Notes: generated from the sequence alone by a model not told the origin. A stretch of DNA of 64,000 nt from a bacterium (GCA_037139515.1 JBAXGH010000004.1:7514-71513); one strand, 5' to 3'; counted from the first letter of the stretch, positions 42,633-64,000 are shown. Translations and numbers: made by a program.

Positions 42633-43763
42633 TCAAGGCTTGAGCTTATTATCGGCGCCGATGGCTTCGGAGATATTTTTAAACCCGTCACGCTTCAAAA
42701 GCTCAATCAATCCGGCATTGATCTCGCCGACTAACTGTGGTCCTTCAAAAATCATACCCGTAATGAGTTGGAGCAGGGAAGCGCCGGCGCGAATTTTTAG
42801 GTAAGCATCTTCGGCGCTAAAAATGCCGCCGCAACCGACAAGCGTAAATCGCGAACCGTATTTTTTATATAAGTGTGAGAGTTGAGCGTTGGCTTTTTCT
42901 TCGACGAGTTTTCCGGAAAGTCCACCGTGAGTCGGGCGCAGCGCCTCGGGAACGGCTTCGTAGGTTTTGGTGAGATTGCTCGAAATCAAGCCTTGAATTC
43001 GGTGGCGCGCGGCGACATCGATCAGCGAATCAAGCTGTTCAAACGTCAGATCCGGTGAAAGTTTTATAAAGATAGGCCGTGGGCCGTAGGCCGTAGGGCG
43101 TAGGGAAACATTTTCGAGCGCAGTGAGCAGCTTTTCTAAGCGCGGGGCATCATTAAAAGGTTGGCCGCCGAATGCATTCGGGCAGCTGATATTGATTGTT
43201 ATGTAATCAGCGGTATCTTTTACGGCTTCCAGGGCGGCGCCATAGTCCGCAATCGCGGCTTCGTCTTCGGCGGTTTCGGCGCAATTAGTTTTAGCGATAC
43301 TTACTCCGACCGGAAAACGATGAGACACGGCGTGTAAACGAACCGCGACATTCGCCGCGCCTTCGTTCTTTAAACCATACCAAACCACAAGTGATTGCTG
43401 ATCTTTGAGGCGCCAGAGCCGCGGTTTTGGATTTCCCGCGCAGGTTTTTCCTGTGACTGATCCGGCTTCCATAAAGCCGAATCCAACGTCAGGCAAAATA
43501 TTTAAAAGATGAGCGTCTTTATCAAAACCGGCGGCGAGTCCAACCGGATTTTTAAATTCAAGTCCGCGAATATTTTGGACGAGCGACGGGTCTTCGATAT
43601 GAAAAGCTAAGCGAGTGAAAAATCGAGTCACCGAAAAGCGCCCGAGAAACTCGCCGAGGTGAGTCATCGAATCATGAACATCTTCCGGGTCGCGGCGAAA
43701 GAAAAGCGGTTTGGCTAGATTTTTGTAAATGAATCGTGATGTGGCGTGAAAAACTTTTTTCAT
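42633..43763 (-). CDS. pyrD: Dihydroorotate dehydrogenase (quinone type) carrying an in-frame repeat insertion
   Basis: A DHOD family-2 layout (NPVGLAAGFDKDAHLLNILPDVGFGFMEAGSVTGKTCAGNPKPRLWRL; GGIFSAEDAYLKIRAGASL). The segment SLRPTAYGPRPI is encoded by the GGCCGTAGG repeat at 43075-43105. Confidence 0.85.
   Translation of the reverse strand: MKKVFHATSRFIYKNLAKPLFFRRDPEDVHDSMTHLGEFLGRFSVTRFFTRLAFHIEDPSLVQNIRGLEFKNPVGLAAGFDKDAHLLNILPDVGFGFMEAGSVTGKTCAGNPKPRLWRLKDQQSLVVWYGLKNEGAANVAVRLHAVSHRFPVGVSIAKTNCAETAEDEAAIADYGAALEAVKDTADYITINISCPNAFGGQPFNDAPRLEKLLTALENVSLRPTAYGPRPIFIKLSPDLTFEQLDSLIDVAARHRIQGLISSNLTKTYEAVPEALRPTHGGLSGKLVEEKANAQLSHLYKKYGSRFTLVGCGGIFSAEDAYLKIRAGASLLQLITGMIFEGPQLVGEINAGLIELLKRDGFKNISEAIGADNKLKP
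43075..43105. repeat. GGCCGTGGGCCGTAGGCCGTAGGGCGTAGGG repeat, in frame within pyrD
   Basis: The same 31-mer family occurs at 36815-36845 and 62008-62037. Confidence 0.65.
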
Positions 43764-43870
43764 ACCGCTCTATTTTGCGCTTTTGGTTCGTGAGGTCAAG
43801 GTATCTTGACTTTTTGCCACATTCTGGCCACATTGCGGTATCGAAGTTCCTTTCCCGCCAAGGAGGCGTC

Positions 43871-45037
43871 ATGCAGAAGACTCAAGCTGAGATCGAAGTT
43901 GAGCGTCGTTCCCGCCAGGTTTACGATTACAAGACGGACGAAGAGAGGATGAACGTCGTAAGGTCGGATGAGCCGACCGCGGTCCGTGTGGCGGCCGTTT
44001 CCGGCCTTGAAGACCAGAAACTGTTGCCGGAAATTCTTTTCGGTGACAGGGAAGTACCGGTTCGGATTGCGGCCGTTGATCGAGTACGTGGCGGGGGTGT
44101 GTTGCGATGCGTGGTCAGAGAGGATACGGATTGGCGCGTCAGACTTCGAGCGCTACAACGACTTCCGGAATCCGACATCGCGGAAGCCATTGAGCGCGAC
44201 CCGAGCGTTGAAGTGAAGCGTTCTGGTATTGCAGAGCTTCCGTCTGGTCACGTTCTGCGTCTCAAGTTTGCGCTCGAAACCGAAGACACGGTGCTTGCAC
44301 GAAACTCGCTTGCGAATGTCTTCGGATATGAGACGACGGCGCTCTCGGATGAGCAGCTGCGCCTGGTTGTGGCGCGAAGTGTTTCAAAGGTGACGGCTCT
44401 CGTCGCACTTCGCCTGATTCGTGAGACGCAGCAGGTTCACGAGCTTTACAGTTCTCTCCAGGCTGAGTTGCCGGTATGGAAGTCTCTTTCCGAGCTGCTC
44501 GAAGTTCTAAAGTGTGCCGAGTTCGCGAGGCAGTTCACGATTGAGTTCCCGGGAATCACGAAGACGACCGCTGAGGATTTGGAAAACAAAGTTCGGACGC
44601 TCGATGCGCGGATTGGAGTTTTGTCTGCGACGGAAATCGCAGATGCGCGCTCGAGTCTCGCAAGAATCGTGATTGACCTTCGCGAGGTGATGCGGGCCGC
44701 TGATTGGTGGGCGAGTGGGAAAAAGCTCGGAATTCCGGATTCACTCGCGAACATTTTCAAAGAAAAAGCCGAAGTCATGACGCGCATCGCACTTCTCGTC
44801 ATGGTGGCAGAATTCGGGCGGCTGGGTTCGCTTGCAAAGAAGGAAAAGCTCGTGGCGATGTGCGAGTTCATCGCGAAGAGTCTGGGCCGGACCGGAAAAG
44901 AGAAGGTGGTTGAGGATCGGAAGAAGTCGCACAAGAAGATGAAATCAAGCATCGAGCTTGTGCGGGATGAACTCGAGGCTCAAAGAGAGCGCTTCGACCA
45001 AATTGTGGGCGAGGTGAAGCTGCGGCTCAGGCTGTAG
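43871..45037 (+). CDS. HEAT/PBS-lyase-like repeat protein, higher-GC
   Basis: Start at MQKTQAEIE with an AAGGAGG ribosome-binding site. Repeated VRxAAV..L.d..LLP units at the N-terminus. Confidence 0.55.
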   Translation: MQKTQAEIEVERRSRQVYDYKTDEERMNVVRSDEPTAVRVAAVSGLEDQKLLPEILFGDREVPVRIAAVDRVRGGGVLRCVVREDTDWRVRLRALQRLPESDIAEAIERDPSVEVKRSGIAELPSGHVLRLKFALETEDTVLARNSLANVFGYETTALSDEQLRLVVARSVSKVTALVALRLIRETQQVHELYSSLQAELPVWKSLSELLEVLKCAEFARQFTIEFPGITKTTAEDLENKVRTLDARIGVLSATEIADARSSLARIVIDLREVMRAADWWASGKKLGIPDSLANIFKEKAEVMTRIALLVMVAEFGRLGSLAKKEKLVAMCEFIAKSLGRTGKEKVVEDRKKSHKKMKSSIELVRDELEAQRERFDQIVGEVKLRLRL

Positions 45038-45149
45038 CGCGGTGTGCGATGCTGAGTTCGGCGGGTCCTCCGGGGCCCGCATTTTTAATCCTATAAACCC
45101 CCAGCGTAGCTGGGGTGTACGTTTGAAGGCGACGCCGTATGTTTTCATC

Positions 45150-45385
45150 CCTCCGTCGTCCTCGAAAAATCAGCAGATTTTATCGAGGATCTAAGACAAC
45201 TGCATGGATCCCCGATAATTCGTGCTCGAATTTCGGGGAAGACGTACTTTAGGGCCAGCAAGGCACACAGAGGATCTTTCTGTTTCAAGAAACTGCCGTC
45301 TGGACTTTGCAGAACGCCCTGCCGGCGATTAAGCCGGCGAACACAAAGCCACCGGACTTCAGTCCGGTGGTCGTTTACTTTTGCA
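45150..45385 (+). ncRNA. Candidate structured small RNA, copy A (shares a 5' module with the 57977-58157 copy)
   Basis: Conserved TCGAAAAATCAGCAGATTTTATCGAG(G/A)ATC...GGATCC(C/T)CGATA...GGAAGACGT with covarying stems. It ends in the ccaccggacttcagtccggtgg hairpin plus a T-rich tail. Confidence 0.35.
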
Positions 45386-45424
45386 CAAAAAATCGGAACT
45401 CGACGCACGCAGGTCGGGTTCCGT

Positions 45425-45751
45425 TCAGGTCGGGGTGAAAAGACGAATGGCTTCGATGGCCTCGCATTCACGGCAGTAGCCGTGGCGAAGTTCTTCGGGG
45501 TTGTTTTCTTCCATGCGGGTACGGCGCCAGCGTCTCGCGGTCAATCGGAACATCATCGTGTTCATAGCGGCGTCGTCGTGGCCGTGAAACTCACTTGTTG
45601 CGCAGTCGGCGCCATCATGATTCGCGCAAAGCAGGTTCTCGTGGATAATCTTGAGTGCCGCAGACTCGTTTTCAGCTTCCACGACTGCGGTTTCACGCGG
45701 AGGTTCTTTTGAAGCGCCACGAGTTTCAAAAAAGTGCACAGCGATGAGCAT
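45425..45751 (-). CDS. Small Cys/His-rich hypothetical protein, higher-GC
   Basis: Start set at MLIAVHFF. The longer ORF would run into the palindromic element. HGYCRECEAI and CANHDGADC clusters. Confidence 0.4.
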   Translation of the reverse strand: MLIAVHFFETRGASKEPPRETAVVEAENESAALKIIHENLLCANHDGADCATSEFHGHDDAAMNTMMFRLTARRWRRTRMEENNPEELRHGYCRECEAIEAIRLFTPT

Positions 45752-45780
45752 GGTCTGCTCCTTTTTTGGTTGCGGGTTAG

Positions 45781-45980
45781 TAAGCCTGTTGCCATTTAAG
45801 CTCCAGCTCAAAATGGTAGCTTTCGGCAAACTCTAGGTAAAATATTTTTACCCTTCTACTTATGTTAAATAAGTCGGGTACCCTGTGGCTTAGCTATGGC
45901 TAAACAAAAAATATTTTACCGTCGACTTTGCTCGAAATCTACCTATTTTTATCAGGAAGCTTAAATGGCAACAGGCTTAC
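45781..45980. repeat. Rod-like palindromic element, copy 2
   Basis: Perfect 22-bp terminal inverted repeats, taagcctgttgccatttaagct and its reverse complement. Internal complementary halves. Homologous to 11750-11910. Confidence 0.6.
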
Positions 45981-46037
45981 TGGTTTGCTTATCACAAAAA
46001 CAAAAGCCCGGCAAGACCCGGGCTTTCGTTTGATGCC

Positions 46038-47204
46038 TTACTCCATTCGTGAAACCCACTTTCGAAGTACAGCGCCTTCTGCGGGACGTCTTTTTTCAAA
46101 AGCTTCACGATCGCTCGCTAAATATTTAGCGGTCAGTTCAGCCCAATATTCCGTCACTTTGATGTAAAGTTCTTTTTTTGGATCGTTGTTTTTGATTCGG
46201 TCAACGTAACCGGAGTGAAAGGCGCTTGAATCGGGGTAGCGAGTTTCGAAAAGTCCGCCAATATCTTCAAGAAACTCCAGCCTTTCTTGATTCGAAAGAA
46301 TTTCGGAGTTCATCCAGTCATTCGTGTGAGCCGACTCATGCAGGATTACTTCTATTAGTGAGGCTTTTCGAGCTCCGGCGGCGAATTTTTCAACCACATC
46401 TGGTTCTTCTTTAAATTCTGAAAACTCCCTGCGCGCTTCATCCATGCTTTTGACTTGCAAAAAAACACGAATGGGAACTCGGTGTTCGCTAATGCTTGTT
46501 GTTTGTACTTCGCCCCCAACAGTGCCGCCGGTGCCGTATTCCGCCGGCATCGATTTGACTTCGCGGTCGTAGATAATTTCTGTGGTTGAGTTTTTAAGCC
46601 AAAGACTTGTTGTGCGATATTCGAGCTGACTCCGAATTTCTTTTTCGCTAATACCTGGTTCATCGGGGAGGCCACGAATCGGGATATCGCGTTTTCGCAT
46701 CGATGATTTTTGTTCTTCGGTTGCAGCTTTCCATTCTTCGGAAATTGCCGCAAGGCTTTGACCGAGAGTATCGGTGTTAGCTTTTTCGCTGTTAATGTAA
46801 AGGTCTTTCTTGCCAGATTTTTCTCCAGCTTCAATATCTTCCACGAACCATTTCGCCTCATTGAATCCTCGAACGCGTAGGAGCGGACTGATGTTCTCTC
46901 CGTATTTTTCCTTGAGAGCAGCAACGCGCTCGTTTATTCGTTCTCGTTTGAAAATGTCACGAACAAAATCACATTCTTTTTTAATGCCTTCTTCGCGTTC
47001 ATCCAGTTCTTTTTTTGAAAGTTTTGTTTCGACGAAGGAATACCGGCTGGGTTCATGAGCGAGAGCTTTGCCGCCTACTAGGCTGACCGCAAGAGAGGAA
47101 GAGAGTGTAAAAACACGAAGCCATTTTAGGCGTTTGGATTTCTCGAATCTGTCCTGTGCTATAAGAGCTTCACTTCGTTCTTGGTTTTTAGGTTTTCCAA
47201 ACAT
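46038..47204 (-). CDS. Secreted/anchored zinc metalloprotease-like protein (HExxH)
   Basis: An N-terminal hydrophobic anchor and ILHESAHTNDW near the C-terminus. Confidence 0.6.
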   Translation of the reverse strand: MFGKPKNQERSEALIAQDRFEKSKRLKWLRVFTLSSSLAVSLVGGKALAHEPSRYSFVETKLSKKELDEREEGIKKECDFVRDIFKRERINERVAALKEKYGENISPLLRVRGFNEAKWFVEDIEAGEKSGKKDLYINSEKANTDTLGQSLAAISEEWKAATEEQKSSMRKRDIPIRGLPDEPGISEKEIRSQLEYRTTSLWLKNSTTEIIYDREVKSMPAEYGTGGTVGGEVQTTSISEHRVPIRVFLQVKSMDEARREFSEFKEEPDVVEKFAAGARKASLIEVILHESAHTNDWMNSEILSNQERLEFLEDIGGLFETRYPDSSAFHSGYVDRIKNNDPKKELYIKVTEYWAELTAKYLASDREAFEKRRPAEGAVLRKWVSRME

Positions 47205-53696: not shown

Positions 53697-55007
53697 ATGA
53701 GTGAGTTATTTCTCGGCGTTTTCGCATTGTTGCCTTTGATTATTGATGCATCTGCGATAAGACCATTCGAAACGCCAAAAATTCAATTATTCGAAATCGC
53801 CGTCGTATTTTTTGCGGCGGCGGTTTTGATTTCTAGGTTCCACAGTCGTTTGCGCTCAGGCAAGTGTCCCTCGGGGACAGTCCCCGGGGGACACCTGCCT
53901 GGAGTAGACGTGTCCACTTTGGATTTATGCGTGCTTGGAAGTTTTGCAATCTTAGCGCTTGCTTCAGCCTTTTCGATTTCACCGGGTTTGTCGTTCTTTG
54001 GTTCGGAGGAGCGGGTTTTAGGATTAGTTTTTTATCTTGCCGTTACAGCGATGTATTTCTGTATTCGAATCGATGCCAACTCTGAAGGTTTGCGGAAATA
54101 TTTTTTCGCGAGCCTCGCGGTTTCCGTAATCGTCGCGGTCTACGGTATCGCGCAGTGGTTCGGATTTGATGTCGCGGGTTTGCAGAATTCTTTTCCGGTC
54201 TACGGAACCTATGGCGCCGAGCGCGCTTTTGGAACCATCGGGCATCCGAATCTTTTTGCTGCCTATCTCGCGATGATTCTGCCCTTCGCCCTGCTTTTAC
54301 CGCGATTTTGGATGCGAACTCTTTTTGTGTTCATACTCTCGTTTGCGATTTTAGCCTCGTATTCACGCGCCGCTTGGATTGCTGCCGGCCTTGGCATGAT
54401 GGCTTCGGTTTCGTGTCTTTATCCGGTTTTGGCGCGAAAATGGTTACCACGATTTGCGGGAATTGCCGCGGTCTTAATAACCGTGATTTTTCTAAACGGG
54501 CCAAGCCTTCTCAACTCTTCGAATTCATTTTTGTTTCGTCTCGGAACTTTGACTGATTTTCAAAACGGCTCGGCGCGAGCGCGTTTGGAGGAGTGGAAGT
54601 TTGGCGCGACAAAATTACTCGAGCGTCCGATTTTGGGCTATGGCCCGGAAACCTATGCGCTTATTTCCTATACGCGAGTAAAAAATCCGCATGAAGCGGC
54701 CCGCGGCGCCCCGGGTCCGGATCCGTCGATTGCCGACAGGCTTCATAATTTGGAGCTGGATACTCTGTGGAACTCCGGGATTCTTGGACTCGTGGCGCTA
54801 CTCATGACGCTCTGGTTTGCGTTTCGTGAGTTGCGAGTCTGGCTAAAATCCGGAAAAAATCGCGTTGAAGCCGCGGCCGTCATGGGTTCGCTCGTCGCAT
54901 ATCTTGTTGCAAATCAAGCGGGTTTTGATTTTTCAGTGACAGCGATTTTGTTTTCGCTTTTGCTCGCGAGAATCGCTTTTGCGGAAGAAGAAAAACCGGA
55001 GTTTTGA
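53697..55007 (+). CDS. O-antigen ligase (Wzy_C/WaaL-like) family membrane protein with an in-frame palindrome insert
   Basis: Multi-TM, with YSRAAWIAAGLGMMASV (Wzy_C-like). The segment GKCPSGTVPGGHLPG is encoded by the 32-bp palindrome at 53863-53894. Confidence 0.6.
   Translation: MSELFLGVFALLPLIIDASAIRPFETPKIQLFEIAVVFFAAAVLISRFHSRLRSGKCPSGTVPGGHLPGVDVSTLDLCVLGSFAILALASAFSISPGLSFFGSEERVLGLVFYLAVTAMYFCIRIDANSEGLRKYFFASLAVSVIVAVYGIAQWFGFDVAGLQNSFPVYGTYGAERAFGTIGHPNLFAAYLAMILPFALLLPRFWMRTLFVFILSFAILASYSRAAWIAAGLGMMASVSCLYPVLARKWLPRFAGIAAVLITVIFLNGPSLLNSSNSFLFRLGTLTDFQNGSARARLEEWKFGATKLLERPILGYGPETYALISYTRVKNPHEAARGAPGPDPSIADRLHNLELDTLWNSGILGLVALLMTLWFAFRELRVWLKSGKNRVEAAAVMGSLVAYLVANQAGFDFSVTAILFSLLLARIAFAEEEKPEF
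53863..53894. repeat. 32-bp near-perfect palindrome GTGTCCCTCGGGGACAGTCCCCGGGGGACAC (GGGACWGTCCC family) inside a coding sequence
   Basis: One mismatch between the arms. The reading frame is maintained. Confidence 0.6.
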
Positions 55008-55021
55008 TATAATGCTGCTAT

Positions 55022-58000
55022 ATGAAATTTGACTTTGAATCCGTCGCCAAAAATGCATCCGAGTATCCAGGAGAAGCTAGTAGCAACAAGCGTCCGCGCC
55101 GTAAGGTGGCCGAAATGTCGACGCCCGAAAAGGCGCAGCTACTTTGGGATTCCTATCAAGACTTAAAAACTGTTTGGCGCGCGTTTTTGATACAGAAAAA
55201 AGAAAGCACTGGTGATCAGAATACGGTGTTGAAGCATTTAGCTCATCTAACCGATGCGAATGACGACTTAGCGAAAGAGTTTAAAGCCTCTTCCTTGGCG
55301 CAAAAACTATTGAAGCAAGTGAAGGATCTGTATTCCGAGCCGGAAGTTCAGGTGACTTTTAAATCGAATCAAGAAAATTATCGAAAACAATGGGATGGCG
55401 TAAATGGAAAATGGAAAGAATTCTCGGCTCTTCGAGAGGAGATTAAAGAACTGGAGGCGGAATATGACGATTTGGAGCGCGAACGCTTCGACGAGCGCGG
55501 CAAGCCGGAAGTGCAAAAGCGCCGAACTTTAAAGTACGACATTGCGAATTCTAAAAAATCGCTCGAAGCGGCTCGTGAAGCTGAAAAGACTTTACTCTCC
55601 GAGAATCGTGAACTAAGTCTTCGCGTGCTTTCTGAAACGCTCGACGAAAGACGCAGTGAACTTCGCCAAGGCGACGGGTTTATGTGGTTTCCGAGTCGGC
55701 GTTTAATTTTGGAAAAGCTGGAAGATAAAATCGCCGAAGCTAGAACCTTGCGCGTAATAACCCTTGAAGGAGAATCAGGCACCGGTAAGACGAGTTTTGC
55801 CGATGCTGCCGCGGTAAAGCTTACCCGCGAACATTTGGTTGCGAGCCCAGTTGCGCGCGCCGACATGAAAGTTGACCGGGCGCTTTTCGCGGATGAAAAG
55901 ATTGCTCCCGAAGGCAGCCGAACTGCATACCAGGAAGTACTTCGGGCGATTACCGGAAAAGTTGGTCCCGAAAAACCGATCCAGCATTCCGGTCGAGTGG
56001 CCTTTTTGGATGAGTTAAACCGTCTGACGAATGACCAAGCTAGTGCGTTTTTGACGGCACTCGACAGCATGAAAGTTGGCGGCGAAACCCGCTATGCTTT
56101 AAATGATGCCGATCCGAAGGATAAGGTTCAGGGAAGAGCTTTGGTGCTCGCAGCCCAGAATCCGGCCGGTGAGACTTTTCCGGATCGTACGGTTTTTAGC
56201 CCTGAAGTTGAGCGCAAACAACAAAAAGTTCAGGTTTCGTATTTTAATCAAACGCCAGAAGATCCGGAATTATACGAAGCACTGCTTGTTTCGATGATGG
56301 ATGCCGACGGCCGTATTCTGGCCGCGAAAAGTGACCTAGCTCCAGCTTTTACGGATCCGGAAATTTCTCCGGATGGTAAAACGAAACAGTCTAAACTAAA
56401 AATTGAAGACGCGTCCGGCGGCGCACTTTGGCGATTCTCAAACTTTTTGCATGAAATTTACGAAAACTTTTATCGTCGTCCAAACTTGCTAACTAAGTCT
56501 AATCCTGATGCCTGGCTCAAGCGTCATGTTTTAACGCCGGGCGACGCGATTGAATGGCTAACTAAATATACAGAAATACTGGAAGAGCGTGAGAATCTTC
56601 AAAATTATCTATCAAATCGCCTGCGGGAATGGATCGAAGAAAAAATGCGTGGTAATGCTGATGTCGAAGAAAAGCGTCTTTATCTTGAACTTGCGCAGAA
56701 GTTTGTGTTTTTGACTCCAAGTGGAGATACGGTGACTGATTCAAATTCTGCAACGCAAAGCATCATGACAAAACGCGAAATCGCCGAAATGTCGCCACGT
56801 ATTCCGCGAGCAATCGAGGGTTTGGTGGAAGCTCCCAAGAATGATGAACAAGAAAATCGAATCATGAATCTTGAGATGATTGATGGCACGAAACTAAATC
56901 GAGTTAGTTTTCGCTTTTCGGCGACAAAGGTTTTGCAGAATGGGTTCGAAGGCCCAGGAGGAAAAGAACTTCGTTTTATCGGACACATTGTGACTTGTGG
57001 GGATAAGCCTGAGCTAAAAGGTATGGTTCTACTTGAGGAAATTGGTAGACCGGAGCGGAAAATTGTAGCGACCTCGAAGCAGGCGAATAAGATGTTTGAA
57101 TTATTTTCGAACAAGAAAGTTGAGCGCAAAGAAGCTACAGATGAAATCGAAGCACGGAAAATATTCGGCAAAGATTTTTTGGGTCGCCAGGAAGTCAAAG
57201 CACTTTTTGATGTCGATGTGCCGGAAACCAAGATTCCGTATTCTGCCGTCGAGCTGAAAGAAGCTCAAAAAGAAGGCATGATGCTTGTATATCGAATTGA
57301 TAAAGATGCGAAAGGTAAAAAGTTAGACATGACTGCGATTGATGCCATGGCGCTCGCGAGGTGTGGAACAAAGGGTCAGAAAGCTTTTATTCCGCCGAAT
57401 GATGGTAGTCGAAATGAACTATTTTTCACCGATTCACCGCGAGCCGGTTGGAAACTAGTTTCAAAGGAATTGCTTGGCATGAAAGATGGAAAGCCAATCG
57501 GAAAAGTTGAAGATCAGTCAATGAATAAAGACTATCTTGCGGAAACCAAAGTGCTTATCAAATATGCCGTCAAACACAAATTACTTAACGCTCAAGAATT
57601 AACAGAGTGTTCGGATGCCGAATTAGACAAAGTGGCTCGTACTATATTTTCTGGAAAAACCATGCAAGAATTGGTCGACTCTCAAAATGATGTTGAATGG
57701 AAATTCGCGGCGGAGTTCTTATCAAGCTTGAAGGTGAATGAGAAACTTCGTCGCACACCGGCTGAAGTGCTTTATGATATGGTACTGCATCTTCACGCTA
57801 ACGGCGACCGTTTGCTTTCCGGGGTCTATGATAGAGCTAATCGCCGTAATTCTTCGGGTAGCTTGGCGTATCTTGGTGATTTCGATGCCTCGGGTCTGGG
57901 CGTGTCTTGGCATAGGCCCGATGGTGCCCGTCCGAATATTGGTGTTTGCGTCTCCCGAAATGTTTCTCATTTCAACAAACGAGACCGTTCTAAGACCACG

Positions 58001-58171
58001 TCTTTCTCGAAAAATCAGCAGATTTTATCGAGAATCAATGGATCCTCGATACCCCGGATTCGCTGTCCGGGGTTCGAGGAAGACGTCATTGGGTACGTCT
58101 ATTTCCGAGTATTAAAACGGTCTCACGAACAGGCCTTTACGGCCTGTTTGTTTTTGGTTCCGGGTTTTTAA
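55022..58171 (+). CDS. MoxR-like AAA+ ATPase, large form. Its 3' end is probably corrupted by an insertion, so the true stop is uncertain (before ~57980).
   Basis: Walker A ITLEGESGTGKTS and Walker B/sensor VAFLDELNRLTNDQASAFLTALD. The last ~65 codons overlap ncRNA-like copy B and read through by chance. Confidence 0.7.
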   Translation: MKFDFESVAKNASEYPGEASSNKRPRRKVAEMSTPEKAQLLWDSYQDLKTVWRAFLIQKKESTGDQNTVLKHLAHLTDANDDLAKEFKASSLAQKLLKQVKDLYSEPEVQVTFKSNQENYRKQWDGVNGKWKEFSALREEIKELEAEYDDLERERFDERGKPEVQKRRTLKYDIANSKKSLEAAREAEKTLLSENRELSLRVLSETLDERRSELRQGDGFMWFPSRRLILEKLEDKIAEARTLRVITLEGESGTGKTSFADAAAVKLTREHLVASPVARADMKVDRALFADEKIAPEGSRTAYQEVLRAITGKVGPEKPIQHSGRVAFLDELNRLTNDQASAFLTALDSMKVGGETRYALNDADPKDKVQGRALVLAAQNPAGETFPDRTVFSPEVERKQQKVQVSYFNQTPEDPELYEALLVSMMDADGRILAAKSDLAPAFTDPEISPDGKTKQSKLKIEDASGGALWRFSNFLHEIYENFYRRPNLLTKSNPDAWLKRHVLTPGDAIEWLTKYTEILEERENLQNYLSNRLREWIEEKMRGNADVEEKRLYLELAQKFVFLTPSGDTVTDSNSATQSIMTKREIAEMSPRIPRAIEGLVEAPKNDEQENRIMNLEMIDGTKLNRVSFRFSATKVLQNGFEGPGGKELRFIGHIVTCGDKPELKGMVLLEEIGRPERKIVATSKQANKMFELFSNKKVERKEATDEIEARKIFGKDFLGRQEVKALFDVDVPETKIPYSAVELKEAQKEGMMLVYRIDKDAKGKKLDMTAIDAMALARCGTKGQKAFIPPNDGSRNELFFTDSPRAGWKLVSKELLGMKDGKPIGKVEDQSMNKDYLAETKVLIKYAVKHKLLNAQELTECSDAELDKVARTIFSGKTMQELVDSQNDVEWKFAAEFLSSLKVNEKLRRTPAEVLYDMVLHLHANGDRLLSGVYDRANRRNSSGSLAYLGDFDASGLGVSWHRPDGARPNIGVCVSRNVSHFNKRDRSKTTSFSKNQQILSRINGSSIPRIRCPGFEEDVIGYVYFRVLKRSHEQAFTACLFLVPGF
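57977..58157 (+). ncRNA. Candidate structured small RNA, copy B
   Basis: The same conserved 5' module as 45162-45245. Outer inverted repeat cgagaccgtt/aacggtctc. It ends in the acaggcctttacggcctgt hairpin plus TTTGTTTTTGG. Confidence 0.35.
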
Positions 58172-58189
58172 TCCAACCGCCAAGCATTT

Positions 58190-58489
58190 TTCCTATCTCA
58201 ACCAACAGCTATTCGTGAATTTCTTGCGAGGCATCTTCAAATGGAGCTTCATCCGAAGAAAATCACGATTGAAAAATATAACCACGGCGTGGATTTTCTT
58301 GGATACGTTTGTTTTCCGCATCATCGAATTTTAAGAACAAAAACGAAAAAGCGACTGTTCGCAAAAATCTGTTATAAAAATTGGAGCTCGTATTTGGGAG
58401 TTTTGAGATGCTGCAGTTCACGCGGGATACAAACGTCGATATTGGTCAAAATGGGTCTTGAAACTGTTCGTGCGTGTGATATAATTTGA
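58190..58489 (+). pseudogene. Reverse transcriptase C-terminal remnant (RT domain 6/7, FLGY motif)
   Basis: AIREFLARHLQMELHPKKITIEKYNHGVDFLGYVCFPHH matches the end of group II-intron or retron RT palm/thumb. The N-terminal RT domains are absent. Confidence 0.5.
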
Positions 58490-58496
58490 TTGAAAT

Positions 58497-58733
58497 ATGA
58501 ACCTTCGTAAAACACTTTTTTGGGACACTGATGTTAAGACAATCAGTTTAAATCGGAACGCTCGATATATTATCGAGCGGGTTTTGGAATTCGGTAATGA
58601 TCGAGAGGTACGTTGGCTTACGAAAGAGTATGGGCGTCGTAAAATCAGAAATGCGGTTCTGGCCAGTCGCTCGCTTGATCGTAAAAGTCGTGCTTTATGG
58701 CTACTTCTCACGGAAAAGAAAACTGGCAAGTAA
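58497..58733 (+). CDS. Small protein upstream of AbiEii. Putative cognate antitoxin.
   Basis: 78 aa, overlapping the nucleotidyltransferase gene by 37 nt. Assigned by position only. Confidence 0.35.
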   Translation: MNLRKTLFWDTDVKTISLNRNARYIIERVLEFGNDREVRWLTKEYGRRKIRNAVLASRSLDRKSRALWLLLTEKKTGK

Positions 58734-59374
58734 AAGTTATGCCGGTCGCGACCAGGCGCGCCCTGGATTTTTTTGCTTCCAAAAAATGGATGCGTGCCTC
58801 TGGGTGGTATTTGGCGGGTGGTACGGCCTTGGCTTTAGCCTGCGGCCATAGGCGCTCGGTGGATTTGGATTTTTTTCAAGCAAAGCCTTTCTCGACTGAT
58901 AGTTTGTTGCGTCACCTGAATACTGACAAGCTTTGGAAGACAGAAAAAATAGAAGAAAACACGGTACATGGATCTTTTGGTGGTGCCAAAATAAGTTTCA
59001 TGACCAACTCATCGTTTCGCCCGGCTTTTTCTTTTGGAGAATATGGCATGGTGCGTATATTAGATGAACGAGATGTCGCCGCGACCAAATTAATTTCCGT
59101 GAGTCAGCGTGGAAAAAAGCGGGATTTCGTTGATCTATTTTGGTATGCTAAAAATCGGGAACCACTTCGGACACTTTTTAATCGTTTTGCAATGCAGTAT
59201 CCCGATGTCGGACGTAATTTTCACCACATAATAAAAAGTTTGGTATATTTTGAGGATGCGGAACGCGATCCGATGCCGCTTGTAAATTTTGCGGTGACCT
59301 GGAAAGAAATAAAAACCTCATTTGTAAAAGATGCTTCCGAACTGTCGCGTGATTTACTTGGTGTTGAGTTATAA
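58697..59374 (+). CDS. AbiEii/DUF1814-family nucleotidyltransferase (type IV TA toxin-like)
   Basis: LAGGTALALACGHRRSVDLDFF is an NTase-fold GS..D.D motif typical of AbiEii. Confidence 0.6.
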   Translation: MATSHGKENWQVKVMPVATRRALDFFASKKWMRASGWYLAGGTALALACGHRRSVDLDFFQAKPFSTDSLLRHLNTDKLWKTEKIEENTVHGSFGGAKISFMTNSSFRPAFSFGEYGMVRILDERDVAATKLISVSQRGKKRDFVDLFWYAKNREPLRTLFNRFAMQYPDVGRNFHHIIKSLVYFEDAERDPMPLVNFAVTWKEIKTSFVKDASELSRDLLGVEL

Positions 59375-59377
59375 AAT

Positions 59378-61897
59378 ATGTCGAATGAACCAGGAACTCG
59401 CGGTGATGTGACGGAGCAGGATCGTGAAAATCAAGCGGCGCCAAAAGAGCGACCGGCTTTTGATATACGAAATCGTATTCGCAGCGAAGCCGACATAGAA
59501 GCGCAAAAACTCTGGCAGAATTCAGGCGATTCGATTCTGCGGGCGGCGCGCCGCATGTTTGATGATATTTCCGCGCATGGCGCCGAGGCAAAACCGGTTT
59601 CCCTGGGCTTGCCGGAAACAGATCAATTACTAGCGGATTTAGCGCTAGCCGCCAAAGATTCAAAAGCCGCGGTTTCTTCGAATTGGCAGTCAGAAATCGA
59701 AAAACTACGTAATTTTCAAACCAGTCAGGGAAAAATTAACGTGTTTGATGTGCTTACACATCCCGACATGCCGGCTGCTACACGCTTGGATTTTTGGAAC
59801 AAAGAAGTTGCGGGCTTGTTGAAATTTACTTACGAAAATGATTTGGCACAGATTCGCGAAACGGAAACGCGCTTGCCGCATGAACCAGAAACGGAATCGG
59901 ATTCGAATTCGGATTCGAGCGACGAAGAAGTCGCGCCGCCGGATAGCGAGACTATGGATACGAGCATGGACAAGATGGAGAAGAATAAAGAAAAAGAATC
60001 TCACGGATATTTTTCAATTCATCCGTATTTCGGCGGATATTTTCGCGAAGAAGTTTTTGAAGAGCATCGGGGCGGAACGCGGTGGGCCAAGCGCCCACGT
60101 ATTTTGAAGCCAGCGCAAGAGATTTTAGGATTACTCGACGAAAGAATTTGCCGTGGCACGATTTTAGGCGGGCGAATTACTAAGTTACCGCTTCCGGCTG
60201 GTTTTGTGCCCTTACCATCGTCGCTTCGCGGTACTCCCGGAGTTAAAGTTAGCGTCGATGAACACGGCTTGTATTCACTTGATGCCTCAGCTGTCACTGG
60301 TAATATCAGATTTAGTGTGACGATTGGAAAACCGGAAAACGGCGCGATACAAAATCAGGTTGAGCCAGCCGAACTCGCGGTTAGAAATGCGGTTGTGAGC
60401 TTGGAAACACGGACGATGCTTGAGGGCTTGACCGGTACGGAAATTGAAAAAGCCCGCGCCATACAAACTTTCGTGCGTCAGACCTTGGAATATTCCAACG
60501 ATGGCGATTTGAATTTGGTGTACGAAAATCATTCTGAAGGTTATTTTCGCGCTATCGAAATCAATAAAAAAGCTGATTGCGATGTCTCGAATGCTTATTT
60601 TATCAATTTGCTTTCAGCGCTTGGTATCAAGGCGCGACTCGCGGTTGGGCATTATGTGAAACAGAAAGATCATTCCGGGGCTGCGGTTATGAATTCGGGT
60701 TCGCGCCATGCTTGGTCGGAAGTTTGGGATGATACCGTACGTGTTTGGGTTCGGCTTGATGCGACGCCGCCTGGCGATCCAACGCTTGATGATGAGCCGA
60801 CCGATGAGGAGCCTGAAGATAGTTCTGGTGAAGGTGATTTTGGCGAACAAGAATCTTTTCGGCTTTCCGACGAAGAGTTGGAAGAGCTGCGGGAGAAGCT
60901 AAAAAAAGAATTACCGAAGCCGGAAACTTCGGAGGAAAAAGAAAACCGTGAATTTGCGCGCGAGGCAGGCTGCTCGGAAGAAGAAGCGCGGATTATTAAA
61001 AATAAAATCGAAGCGGCGCGACGAATTCGTGATCGCAAAGGTCGTGTGATTCGCGATGCTTTGAGTTCGGAATTTCGGCAAATCGTGGAAACTAATATCA
61101 AAGAAGCGCCGGGTTGGCGCGGGCCGGTCAAGAAAAGCGAGGGCGAAGAATTGGATGACGTGGTCATGGCTATCAAAGATTTGCGCACCGGGCATGCTGA
61201 TCCATTGGGTTATGTACAGGAATTCGTAGATCGGAAAATCGTTCAAGAATACGGCGGGTTTAATGCTTATTTTGTTTTTGATCGCTCCGGCTCGATGAAT
61301 GATTTAGATTCAGCTTCCGGACAGACAAAGAAAACAGAACAGCAACTGGCTGGTTTTTTGGTACTCGATGGTATTAAATCTTTTAGTTATCAAACTGAAG
61401 TCGCGAGACGTCAAAATCAACTCACTTCGCCACTCCGAGTTAATTCCTGGGTTGGTGCTTTTCAAAATGGTGCGGCGACGGAATTAAAACCGCTTGGCGG
61501 TGATTGGGGTCCACGCGAACAGACTGCTGTTTGGAAGGGATTGGAATCGAACGTTGGCGGGGGAACCCCGGCTCATTTGGGCCTGCGGCGCGTTCGTGAG
61601 CAAATCGAGCAAGAACTTGAAATTGAGAAGCAAAGTGGGCAAAAGGGAAAACCGCTTGTGCGCATGGTTATGGTTTTTATGGATGGCGACGTTGACGATA
61701 GGCCTGGATATCTTGCCGAACAGGCTAAACTTGAAGCGCTCGGCGTTTCGGTTTCAAGCTGGGGCATGACCGCGAGCGCAAATGCTGTGGCGGCATTCCC
61801 TGAGGGTCATTGTCTACCTTCGGTTAAGGATATTATTGAACCGGTTACGGAACATATTGTTTTGAAGGCGAAGAAGTTGCGGGCGAAAAGATCGTGA
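59378..61897 (+). CDS. Transglutaminase-like plus VWA-domain protein, the expected partner of the MoxR ATPase
   Basis: The TGase core is ADCDVSNAYFINLLSALGIKARLAVGHYV...RHAWSEVWDDTVRVWVRLDATP (C-H-D). The VWA MIDAS motif is YFVFDRSGSMND. An acidic low-complexity linker. Confidence 0.75.
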   Translation: MSNEPGTRGDVTEQDRENQAAPKERPAFDIRNRIRSEADIEAQKLWQNSGDSILRAARRMFDDISAHGAEAKPVSLGLPETDQLLADLALAAKDSKAAVSSNWQSEIEKLRNFQTSQGKINVFDVLTHPDMPAATRLDFWNKEVAGLLKFTYENDLAQIRETETRLPHEPETESDSNSDSSDEEVAPPDSETMDTSMDKMEKNKEKESHGYFSIHPYFGGYFREEVFEEHRGGTRWAKRPRILKPAQEILGLLDERICRGTILGGRITKLPLPAGFVPLPSSLRGTPGVKVSVDEHGLYSLDASAVTGNIRFSVTIGKPENGAIQNQVEPAELAVRNAVVSLETRTMLEGLTGTEIEKARAIQTFVRQTLEYSNDGDLNLVYENHSEGYFRAIEINKKADCDVSNAYFINLLSALGIKARLAVGHYVKQKDHSGAAVMNSGSRHAWSEVWDDTVRVWVRLDATPPGDPTLDDEPTDEEPEDSSGEGDFGEQESFRLSDEELEELREKLKKELPKPETSEEKENREFAREAGCSEEEARIIKNKIEAARRIRDRKGRVIRDALSSEFRQIVETNIKEAPGWRGPVKKSEGEELDDVVMAIKDLRTGHADPLGYVQEFVDRKIVQEYGGFNAYFVFDRSGSMNDLDSASGQTKKTEQQLAGFLVLDGIKSFSYQTEVARRQNQLTSPLRVNSWVGAFQNGAATELKPLGGDWGPREQTAVWKGLESNVGGGTPAHLGLRRVREQIEQELEIEKQSGQKGKPLVRMVMVFMDGDVDDRPGYLAEQAKLEALGVSVSSWGMTASANAVAAFPEGHCLPSVKDIIEPVTEHIVLKAKKLRAKRS

Positions 61898-61918
61898 GAG
61901 CTGATATAATACTTATAT

Positions 61919-63073
61919 ATGAACCTCGATTCAACGACGCTCCGATATATTGCCGTGGCTTTGACCGCTCTCGCCGGAGGACTCTATTGGTTTTGGAATC
62001 GCGGTGAGGCCGTAGGCCATCGGCCGCAGGGCGTAGGAGTGCTCAAAAATCTTACCGAACTTGCAAAAACCGGGGCGCTTGATGCCGTCATCGGTCGCGA
62101 TGATGAGATCGATCGCATTATCCAAATCATCCAGCGACGCACCAAAAATAATCCTTTATTGCTTGGCGACCCGGGAGTAGGGAAGACGGCTATCGTTGAA
62201 GGTCTCGCAGTTCGAATCATTAAAAACAATGTTCCGAAGGCTTTACAGGGAAAACAGATATTTGAACTTTCGGTCGCCGAACTGATTGCCGGCACCAAAT
62301 ATCGCGGAGAATTTGAGGAGCGCTTACGTGGCGTTATGAAGGAATTAGAGAAGGCTCCGCGTCAGACGATTTTGTTTGTTGATGAGATTCATCTACTCGA
62401 GCAAACCAAGGGCGCCGAGGGCGCAGTTTCGGCTTCCGATGTTTTGAAGCCAGCGCTTGCTCGTGGTGATGTTTCGATTATCGGTGCCACGACACTCAAA
62501 GAATACGAAGAATATATTCGCCCGAACACGGCGCTCGATCGTAGGTTTCAACCGGTTTTGGTTGCTGAACCGACTCCGGAAGCGGCGCTTGCTGTGCTTC
62601 GTGGTATCGCAAACTTATACGAGAAGCATCACGACGTGATTATCGACGACGACGCGCTTGAAGCCGCGGTCACGCTTTCGATTGAAAAATTAAAGGGTCG
62701 TCGTTTGCCGGACAAAGCGATTGATATCATCGACGAAGCTTCGGCCAAGGTCGCGATTGAAATGCAGGGCGCGCACGCAACGGCCATCGGTGTTATGCAT
62801 GCTGCCGCTGAGAAGTCTCGCGAGAGAGCCGCCAAAGAACGCCAGGATATCGGATTCGAAACCAAGCATTTAGAGGAGTTGTCGAAGAAGTATCCCGGCG
62901 ATCCGGCTCTCATGAGCGCGGAGAAAACCCTGCAGAGACATGAAGCAGAGCTCGCGGTCGTGGCTTCGGCGCGGGTTTCGGACGATGGTCGGGCGCGGGT
63001 TTTGCGCAAAGACGTGGAAGAAGTCATCGCCGCCTGGGCGGATCTTGGAAAAGCCGAGGAAAAATCAAAATAA
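61919..63073 (+). CDS. Clp/Hsp100 D1-type AAA+ ATPase (single domain, membrane-anchored) with an in-frame repeat
   Basis: LDAVIGRDDEIDRIIQIIQRRTKNNPLLLGDPGVGKTAIVEGLAVRI...GTKYRGEFEERL matches ClpA/B D1. N-terminal TM segment. EAVGHRPQGVGV is encoded by the 62008-62037 repeat. Confidence 0.7.
   Translation: MNLDSTTLRYIAVALTALAGGLYWFWNRGEAVGHRPQGVGVLKNLTELAKTGALDAVIGRDDEIDRIIQIIQRRTKNNPLLLGDPGVGKTAIVEGLAVRIIKNNVPKALQGKQIFELSVAELIAGTKYRGEFEERLRGVMKELEKAPRQTILFVDEIHLLEQTKGAEGAVSASDVLKPALARGDVSIIGATTLKEYEEYIRPNTALDRRFQPVLVAEPTPEAALAVLRGIANLYEKHHDVIIDDDALEAAVTLSIEKLKGRRLPDKAIDIIDEASAKVAIEMQGAHATAIGVMHAAAEKSRERAAKERQDIGFETKHLEELSKKYPGDPALMSAEKTLQRHEAELAVVASARVSDDGRARVLRKDVEEVIAAWADLGKAEEKSK
62008..62037. 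repeat. GGCCGTAGGCCATCGGCCGCAGGGCGTAGG repeat, in frame within the Clp-like gene
   Basis: Third member of the 31-bp GGCCGTAGG family. Confidence 0.6.
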
Positions 63074-63092
63074 AGTATTTTTTCGCTTTTTT

Positions 63093-63131
63093 CGCTTAAA
63101 ATGCTGGGGACAGTCCCGGGCATTTTAAGCG
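63093..63131 (+). terminator. 39-bp palindrome CGCTTAAAATGCTGGGGACAGTCCCGGGCATTTTAAGCG plus T-tract. Terminator of the Clp-like gene.
   Basis: Second copy of the 40787-40825 palindrome, followed by GTTTTTTATTG. Confidence 0.6.
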
Positions 63132-63221
63132 GTTTTTTATTGTTTCTCCCTGTTGACAAGGGTGAGCCGTTGTGATAGCAATTAGCGCAGTAACCCGTGG
63201 AGGGAATCCAAGGAGGAAGGC

Positions 63222-64000
63222 ATGCTGAAGAATGTAAAAGTGTCGGACCGTTATATTTACGGAACGGCCAAGAACAAGCCTCCGCACATTGAAGACCTTC
63301 TCAGGGTCTTTCGCGGAGCTGCCACCCAGGGGCTGTGCTTCGGAACCAAGGAGGATGTCGATAAGACTCTTCTTCTGGTGAGTACGCTCTACTCGTATCA
63401 CGAAGCGAATGAAGGAGTCTTCCGGTTTTTGCTCGAGGAAGGAGTTCTGCTTCGTGACGCGGATCCGAGTGGAGACGCGAAGCTCGACCGGTTCTACTTC
63501 GACGGCAAGCGTGCGAAACACGTCGCACACTGCATCGAAAGATCGCGTCCGACGGAGAAGACGAATGTCTTGCTTCGGAAAGATGCGCTTGAAAGGCTCA
63601 AGAAGTACGCCCCCTCGCCGCCGCCCGTTCCGATGAATCCAGGTCGCGCGGTTCCCGAGATTCAAAAACCCGAAATCGGAGCTGTCGCGGCTTCGAAGGA
63701 GCAGTACATGTCCGAGAAGACGGAGCAGGTTGCGGATGAGCAGGTGATTGTTGTGAAGCCGCAGAGCGAATTTCATCGCCTTTGCTTGCTTCCGGGAGTC
63801 GAGCGAGTGGTCTGGGCGGACATCGCCCGTGGCGCGCCGATCCAGAAGGAAACCGTTGTTGATGAGCAGAAGCGCACCTACGAGGAGCTGATTGGCGCCG
63901 GGGTGCTTCGGCTCGAAGACGGCGTGTTTTCTCTCGCAAGGCCGATCGAGACCTTCATCATCCTGAACCTCGAAGAGCGTCGCGTGCTTCGGGTGAACCG
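63222..64000 (+). CDS. Hypothetical protein, higher-GC. Its 3' end lies outside the window.
   Basis: AAGGAGGAAGGC-ATG ribosome-binding site. Open to the window end. Antisense ORFs here are R/P-rich and judged spurious. Confidence 0.55.
   Translation, partial: MLKNVKVSDRYIYGTAKNKPPHIEDLLRVFRGAATQGLCFGTKEDVDKTLLLVSTLYSYHEANEGVFRFLLEEGVLLRDADPSGDAKLDRFYFDGKRAKHVAHCIERSRPTEKTNVLLRKDALERLKKYAPSPPPVPMNPGRAVPEIQKPEIGAVAASKEQYMSEKTEQVADEQVIVVKPQSEFHRLCLLPGVERVVWADIARGAPIQKETVVDEQKRTYEELIGAGVLRLEDGVFSLARPIETFIILNLEERRVLRVN

Follow-up and report, generated by a model that had tools for sequence, protein, structure and literature searches.

In diversity-generating retroelements (DGRs), a complex of reverse transcriptase (RT) and Avd copies the RNA of a template repeat (TR) with errors at adenines, and the cDNA replaces a variable repeat (VR). 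In candidate phyla radiation (CPR) bacteria, DGR targets are most commonly AAA ATPases fused to a CLec domain, as reported in PMC10907252 (citing Paul et al. 2017), and links between DGRs and MoxR-vWA systems have been described (PMC7159879). Here, we analyze a locus within a 64,000-nt stretch of bacterial DNA (GCA_037139515.1 JBAXGH010000004.1:7514-71513; hereafter the window, with all coordinates counted from its first letter), where an AAA_5 ATPase gene, a structured element, an RT fragment, a toxin–antitoxin (TA) pair and a transglutaminase gene follow one another. We conclude that the locus is very probably a fossil DGR inside a conserved module, which comprises an AAA_5 ATPase gene with its VR, a TR, avd on the minus strand, the RT gene on the plus strand and a transglutaminase/VWA gene.

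The module is present in intact form in relatives of the ATPase. We compared synteny in all five relatives with enough flanking sequence (L001, L002, L015, L018 and L014; 31–41% ATPase identity), and we checked four of them (L001, L002, L015 and L018) for repeats. The order of genes in these four is constant: an AAA_5 gene, a gap of about 0.7–1.1 kb, an RVT_1 gene and a Transglut_core gene. In all five relatives, tblastn places avd on the minus strand, transcribed away from the RT gene, and the distant L014 (31% ATPase identity) also has Avd, the RT and a transglutaminase gene. Relatives carry the RT motifs 'GLPLGNLTSQ...YMRYNDD'. Each of the four relatives contains a direct repeat of about 120–130 nt, with one copy at the extreme 3′ end of the ATPase gene (the VR) and the second copy (the TR) 380–600 nt downstream. 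The mismatches between the two copies fall at TR adenines (8/9 in L001, 14/16 in L002 and 17/18 in L018), and the VRs of the relatives are 6–12% A. Judged by their sequences, these are textbook VR/TR pairs, with the ATPase as the predicted DGR target and the RT as part of the operon. Because the VR/TR pairs are adenine-specific and the order is constant across relatives, the retroelement is the module's ancestral DGR and not an intruder. In an intact module of this family, the TR cDNA would take the place of the ATPase gene's 3′-terminal VR and diversify a C-terminal binding surface.

A first-pass annotation of the window had proposed that an insert split a contiguous MoxR/VWA gene pair, and it had suggested synteny as a check. 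The comparison overturns that proposal: all five flank-bearing relatives hold Avd and RT in the same interval, and the 'split' order is native in this family (L001, L002, L015, L018 and L014). Even between deeply diverged relatives, a transglutaminase/VWA-like partner stays with these ATPase targets, which provides a lead to the function of the diversified ATPase; in the papers that we consulted on CPR AAA-ATPase DGR targets, we found no description of such a conserved partner gene.

The sequence-level statements of the first-pass annotation (ORFs, fold, RT fragment, TA pair and transglutaminase gene) all held on recheck, and the locus is not an assembly artefact, because an independent Logan assembly (L011) is 100% identical to window positions 56868–63116. 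The ATPase open reading frame (ORF; 55022–58171, plus strand) indeed runs through the strongly folding stretch, and it encodes 1049 aa with an AAA_5 domain (Pfam, E = 1.4e-8) and, in an alignment with seven homologues, intact Walker A (GESGTGKT) and Walker B (LDE) motifs. Homology supports aa 1–980 of it (55022..57961, plus strand). All seven homologues (37–45% identity) terminate in '...GFRLSVRVEL', a motif that aligns with the window's 'GVCVSR' (aa 974–979, nt 57941–57958), and the relatives' stop codon follows 2–4 codons later. When the ATPase family profile was searched against 1.8 billion representative proteins, the window protein was matched over residues 1–980 only. Because the homologues and the family profile end at aa 980 (about nt 57961), the last 69 codons are unsupported, which agrees with the earlier proposal that the C-terminus had been altered and supplies the ortholog alignment called for at that time. 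This read-through tail, 69 codons and a TAA stop (57962..58171, plus strand), spans a palindromic repeat, whose other copy in the window is non-coding, and a terminator-like hairpin (58125..58151, plus strand) with an 11-bp stem followed by a T run. The hairpin lies 18 nt before the stop codon of the extended ORF; because this predicted terminator precedes the new stop, ATPase transcripts may lack a stop codon (non-stop mRNAs). In the deposited 1049-aa 'AAA family ATPase', the last 69 residues are therefore spurious.

The former VR remains recognizable at the ATPase C-terminus (57835..57965, plus strand), where the sequence aligns with the relatives' VRs ('...SSGG.VP.G.F...GFRLSVR') and contains 13.7% A, compared with 30.6% in the gene body. 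We found no TR to accompany it: a blastn search of 57700–58200 against the window returned no second copy, and an adenine-tolerant ungapped scan of both window strands gave only noise (the best candidate had 45 non-A mismatches in 146 nt).

The C-terminal remnant of a DGR RT occupies an open stretch in frame with the ATPase ORF (58172..58489, plus strand), and a single TAA (58169–58171) stands between the two, as had been reported. Matches by hidden Markov model (HMM) and by pairwise comparison place the RT homology at about 58196–58462, where the last 75–95 or so RT residues remain. An HMM of the five syntenic RTs matched this stump at E = 2.9e-15 over positions 236–309 of 325, and the stump was its only match among all six-frame window fragments. 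Because only these positions were matched, the catalytic two-thirds of the RT (domains 1–5) are missing; the window has neither a YxDD catalytic core nor the LGxxxSQ motif of DGR-type domain 4. The stump also matches the RT C-termini of three other CPR DGR loci (L003, L004 and L005) with E-values of 1e-19 to 1e-26, and its 40 database relatives are all Patescibacteria RVT_1 proteins with the DGR-type motif 'LPIGNLTSQ' and adjoining Avd genes. The 82-aa 'gene' annotated after the ATPase is this RT stump; it is a dead remnant, as first proposed, and its RT similarity survives a profile search.

Adjoining the RT stump on the opposite strand is a C-terminal remnant of Avd, 'LLVEIGKMLGGWIKNPEPKTNRP' (58140..58208, minus strand), identified with an Avd HMM and by tblastn with the L004 Avd. 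Its peptide 'LLVEIGKMLGGWIK...' was the best Avd-HMM match of 2643 six-frame window fragments (E = 0.0028); it covers HMM positions 107–121 of 124, with about 15–23 residues left. The position and orientation of the Avd stump relative to the RT are those of the relatives, and the hairpin at 58125–58151 followed by the Avd 3′ end mirrors the arrangement of TR, hairpin and Avd end in L003, L004 and L005. The 64-kb window contains no other RT or Avd similarity. The distance between the VR and the Avd stump is only about 200 nt, of which 91 nt are the palindromic repeat, and at least 400 nt of spacer, including the TR, have been lost. Of the features of a functional DGR, the RT core, a TR/VR pair and a full-length Avd are all missing from the window; of the features of DGR descent, it retains a target C-terminus homologous to VRs together with RT and Avd traces that are placed and oriented as in the intact relatives.

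An internal deletion fused the final ~20 avd codons to the final ~95 RT codons. In the relatives, the two genes stand next to each other in divergent orientation, and a single deletion of roughly 1 kb that took away both 5′ halves explains the junction; the intergenic start region between them would also have been removed. The ATPase gene has lost its native stop codon and now reads through 69 extra codons up to a chance TAA. Recombination between the VR and TR direct repeats could account for the loss of both the TR and the native stop. We also considered the 3′ end of the window's VR as TR-derived; one boundary adenine fits, which is too little for a claim. The 91-nt palindromic repeat was added later, in the remaining spacer, and so was a DUF6922/AbiEii cassette with its own putative promoter, between the RT stump and the transglutaminase gene. 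The VR would now be frozen, and the module, whose ATPase and transglutaminase genes look intact, is probably still working with a fixed C-terminal domain and a 69-residue tail.

Several points weigh against a fossil DGR at this locus. The relatives are distant (31–41% ATPase identity), and the order of events and the exact breakpoints lie beyond reconstruction. No more than about 15 residues were matched in the Avd remnant (E = 0.0028). Pairwise MAFFT and BLASTP comparisons of the RT stump with single syntenic RTs gave no link, and a profile was required; pairwise BLAST misses four of the five syntenic RTs, and the profile link is driven largely by L014. The TR search covered 64 kb of the genome. 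For the variable domain, two AlphaFold2 models reached predicted local distance difference test (pLDDT) scores of 36.7 and 46.8 and Pfam gave no match, which leaves its CLec fold putative.

The RT clade nearest to the window's stump has interrupted genes of its own. In these CPR DGR loci, a simple-sequence tract breaks the RT gene after domain 3 (IIxSF) and before domain 4 (GLPIGNLTSQ); the tract is G10 in L003 (~4925–4935) and L005 (~4945–4955), (GA)14 in L004 (~4905–4932) and (GA)6 in L019 (~2178–2190), and the part downstream of the tract is in another frame in 4/4 cases. All 40 database relatives of the RT fragment are at most 182 aa long, and two of them start with 'ERERERE'. Such interruptions could reflect phase variation or slippage-dependent RT expression, and in some assemblies the tracts could be homopolymer sequencing errors. 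A description of tract-interrupted DGR RT genes was not found in the literature.

We now turn to the structured 'RNA element' between the VR and the RT stump. The region 57840–58190 folds strongly (minimum free energy of –138.7 kcal/mol, z = –7.2 versus shuffles), and within it lies a 91-nt palindromic, multicopy element (57998..58088; nhmmer E = 1e-18). A second copy occupies an unrelated intergenic region downstream of ORF 43736–45037 (45153..45247), and a 27-nt hairpin, CTCGAAAAATCAGCAGATTTTATCGAG, is identical in the two copies (58006–58032 and 45161–45187). The element is bounded by terminal inverted repeats, ACGTC.T.CTCGA...TCGAGGA.GACGT (ACGTCATCCTCGA...TCGAGGATGACGT), and contains two hairpins of about 12–13 bp with complementary loops, which are roughly reverse complements of one another. 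It scores on both strands, and its RNAalifold fold is one long palindrome, with compensatory changes that preserve the stems (for example, AAAATC/GATTTT versus AAAGTC/GACTTT). A metagenome scan combined with nhmmer found further copies at unrelated intergenic sites, of which L007 has one, L009 has four and L006 has about five; matches in L008 and L010 were rejected as chance matches within coding sequence. An exact hairpin search in the genome contig collection returned no match. Rfam gave no match at E ≤ 1 in 54000–64000, only chance matches in a lenient scan of 44900–46100, and only 16S rRNA and tRNAs in a gathering-threshold scan of the whole window. No target-site duplication was evident in the flanks of the repeat. 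The element is a palindrome with inverted repeats at its termini and occurs in multiple copies scattered over intergenic sites; from these sequence features, we read it as a repeat similar to repetitive extragenic palindromes (REPs) or miniature inverted-repeat transposable elements (MITEs) that landed in the decayed spacer, and not as retroelement RNA. Its dispersal at unrelated intergenic sites contradicts the earlier assignment of the element to the retroelement.

In L009 (852–1306), a gene for a 98-aa GIY-YIG nuclease (Pfam, E = 1.9e-14) stands between a half copy and a full copy of the repeat, and its ATG falls where short repeat copies have 'ATGGATCCTCGATAA'; the window has no GIY-YIG gene. 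It is conceivable, though unlikely, that the 91-nt repeats form an undescribed CPR family that is mobilized by GIY-YIG nucleases or serves as their homing sites, and that the arrival of a copy here, via breaks and repair, cost the locus its TR and switched off the DGR. If this were true, one selfish element would have silenced another, leaving a 'frozen' sensor ATPase, in parallel to REPIN-RAYT with a different enzyme.

Two other repeats were seen in the window. The intergenic region that holds the second copy of the palindromic element also contains a perfect 24-nt inverted repeat (45779–45802 and 45958–45981) around 155 nt of AT-rich sequence, a unit that could be a MITE or an invertible segment. 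Four short hairpin repeats starting with GTCATYCC, for example GTCATTCCCGCGTAGGCGGGAATC, lie within 1100–1350, and one of them is 93% identical to L006 7846–7890; they are a second REP-like family, shared with the same metagenome lineage.

The cassette between the RT stump and the transglutaminase gene consists of two overlapping genes. The first encodes a small DUF6922 protein of 78 aa, a presumed antitoxin partner (58497..58733, plus strand; Pfam, E = 6e-20), and the second encodes an AbiEii-family nucleotidyltransferase (NTase) with its GG[TS]...D.D motif present (58697..59374, plus strand; PF08843, E = 4.1e-16; PADLOC AbiEii, E = 6.2e-9), in line with the pair first reported there. A near-consensus promoter lies just upstream of the DUF6922 gene (58458..58485, plus strand; TTGAAA, 16 nt, TG-TATAAT), predicted from 11/12 consensus matches. 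A search with the AbiEii protein gave 3499 relatives (E ≤ 1e-5), most of them from CPR lineages, and the overlapping DUF6922 and AbiEii pair recurs between housekeeping genes in L020 and L021. In the relatives of the window's module, the RT stop and the transglutaminase start are 4–8 nt apart or overlap. Because the two genes abut in the relatives, the ~880-nt cassette is a true insertion. It is the only clear secondary insertion at the locus; the first-pass view of the AbiEii pair as an add-on stands, since the pair occurs in housekeeping contexts elsewhere and the relatives' junction leaves no room for it.

The alternative that the first-pass annotation favoured is a foreign degenerate retroelement or defence islet, made up of the RNA element, the RT and the TA pair, which inserted into a contiguous MoxR/VWA-transglutaminase operon. 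The TA cassette is missing from all relatives and looks mobile, the palindromic repeat is likewise a secondary arrival, and pairwise BLAST puts the RT stump nearer to the RTs of L003–L005 than to four of the syntenic RTs. Against these points, every flank-bearing relative has Avd and RT, the four relatives that were checked have a TR as well as a VR in the ATPase gene, and the RT stump fits the profile of the syntenic RTs (E = 2.9e-15). The three parts are also distributed separately, with the repeat and the TA cassette each found alone elsewhere. Synteny largely refutes this alternative, and we consider it highly improbable. What survives of the first-pass interpretation is a degenerate retroelement, an altered ATPase C-terminus and an added TA pair; the pair of genes was not 'split', and the retroelement is the operon's own DGR.

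A different possibility is that only the local cassette decayed, and that a TR and an RT located elsewhere in the genome continue to diversify the VR in trans. The VR stretch is still strongly depleted in A, the ATPase ORF is intact, and CPR genomes often carry several DGR loci (PMC10907252). However, no TR, RT or Avd lies elsewhere in the 64-kb window, and the sequence 3′ of the VR, which in studied DGRs holds the target-recognition sequences, is rearranged and interrupted by the repeat, so that diversification in trans appears quite improbable. The folding element could instead act together with the RT fragment as a functional non-coding RNA, such as a retron-like msr/msd, a piece of a group II intron, or a riboswitch or attenuator. 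Its strong predicted fold (z = –7.2), the compensatory changes between copies and a weak NCBIfam group II RT match (E = 1.4e-3) speak for such an RNA; yet that match scores 17.8 against a cut-off of 300, Rfam has no match at E ≤ 1, and the RT fragment lacks catalytic domains. The element is moreover almost perfectly palindromic, scores on either strand and occurs in many copies at unrelated intergenic sites without any RT. An RNA of this kind is almost certainly not what the element represents. The absence of an Rfam match at E ≤ 1 in 54000–64000, the low NCBIfam score and the stump's relatives with DGR motifs and Avd neighbours speak against a group II intron or retron in particular.

The fossil DGR is followed by the conserved downstream partner of the module, a Transglut_core protein with a probable divergent C-terminal VWA domain (59378..61897, plus strand; Pfam, E = 1.1e-12). 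It is 41–56% identical to the post-RT genes of L001, L002 and L015, and the transglutaminase Cys/His/Asp motifs are kept, as read from the translation. A combined transglutaminase and VWA gene had been proposed here; the Transglut_core match holds, and the VWA part is weakly supported, with a visible 'FDRSGSM' motif, weak PDB matches to the anthrax-toxin-receptor VWA (E = 0.02–0.7) and no Pfam VWA match at E ≤ 0.05. Directly after this gene, a 384-aa protein (61919–63073) consists of a single ClpB/ClpA-type first nucleotide-binding domain and a lid; its match to ClpB covers positions 161–406 (E = 3e-102) and scores far short of the cut-off for the full-length protein. The protein may be the module's third member. 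Elsewhere, the window carries a complete 16S rRNA gene (33424–34920, minus strand), and the gathering-threshold Rfam scan found no 23S or 5S rRNA in the 64 kb.

The ATPase itself is unlike a standard MoxR protein in size. Typical MoxR proteins have about 300 aa; the homology-supported part of the window's ATPase has 980 aa, with long extra regions. No MoxR-specific model matched it in Pfam or NCBIfam (AAA_5 only, E = 1.4e-8), and a PDB sequence search with the AAA region found no relative. Its C-terminal module (~290 aa, profile positions 690–980) also exists as many stand-alone proteins of 320–400 aa (P0190–P0305), and Pfam gave no family for 34 of its members; the module appears to be a widespread, unnamed DGR-target scaffold. 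A comparison of the module with the targets of L003–L005 gave a weak VR-level match only (E = 9e-4).

Each layer of the locus has a described counterpart. The inserted cassette resembles the AbiE type IV TA system (AbiEi and AbiEii) in its AbiEii/DUF1814 nucleotidyltransferase, its intact NTase motif and its small, overlapping upstream gene. It is not canonical AbiE, because the partner is the 78-aa DUF6922 protein and not AbiEi; no AbiEi model matched upstream of AbiEii. The palindromic element shares with REP/REPIN and MITE-like elements (REPIN-RAYT and Correia elements) a length of about 91 nt, multiple intergenic copies, a palindromic structure, terminal inverted repeats and compensated stems. 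It differs from REPIN-RAYT in that the enzyme beside one copy of the family (in L009) is a 98-aa GIY-YIG nuclease and not a transposase, and from REP/MITE elements in that no target-site duplication was seen for the window repeat, whose mobility is putative.

The module as a whole resembles the DGR-linked ternary conflict systems of the vWA-MoxR (VMAP) type (Kaur et al. 2020, PMC7159879; Dore et al. 2024, PMC10907252), which likewise combine an AAA+ ATPase, a vWA-type partner and a DGR-diversified domain in one operon, with a thiol-peptidase/transglutaminase-like domain in the partner. In the VMAP systems described, the vWA protein carries the variable FGS/CLec domain, whereas in the window's family the variable domain belongs to the ATPase itself. 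Their hosts are multicellular cyanobacteria or proteobacteria, and the window comes from a CPR bacterium. We identified no VMAP protein at the window locus, where the MoxR and vWA assignments rest on weak matches (AAA_5 only; VWA E = 0.02–0.7).

The closest counterparts are the DGRs with AAA-ATPase targets in CPR/Patescibacteria (RT clade 2, PMC8144416; Paul et al. 2017, as cited in PMC10907252), which the relatives match in components, in order and in adenine-specific mismatches. The window shares with them the homologous Avd and RT stumps and an A-poor VR; it differs in being non-functional, with no TR, no RT core and an Avd stump, and in a target ORF longer by 69 codons. This is ordinary gene decay, in a decayed member of a known system, and the current understanding of DGRs is unchanged. 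The locus shows the death of a DGR with survival of its target operon, and it provides a natural 'frozen VR' variant of the common CPR AAA-ATPase targets.

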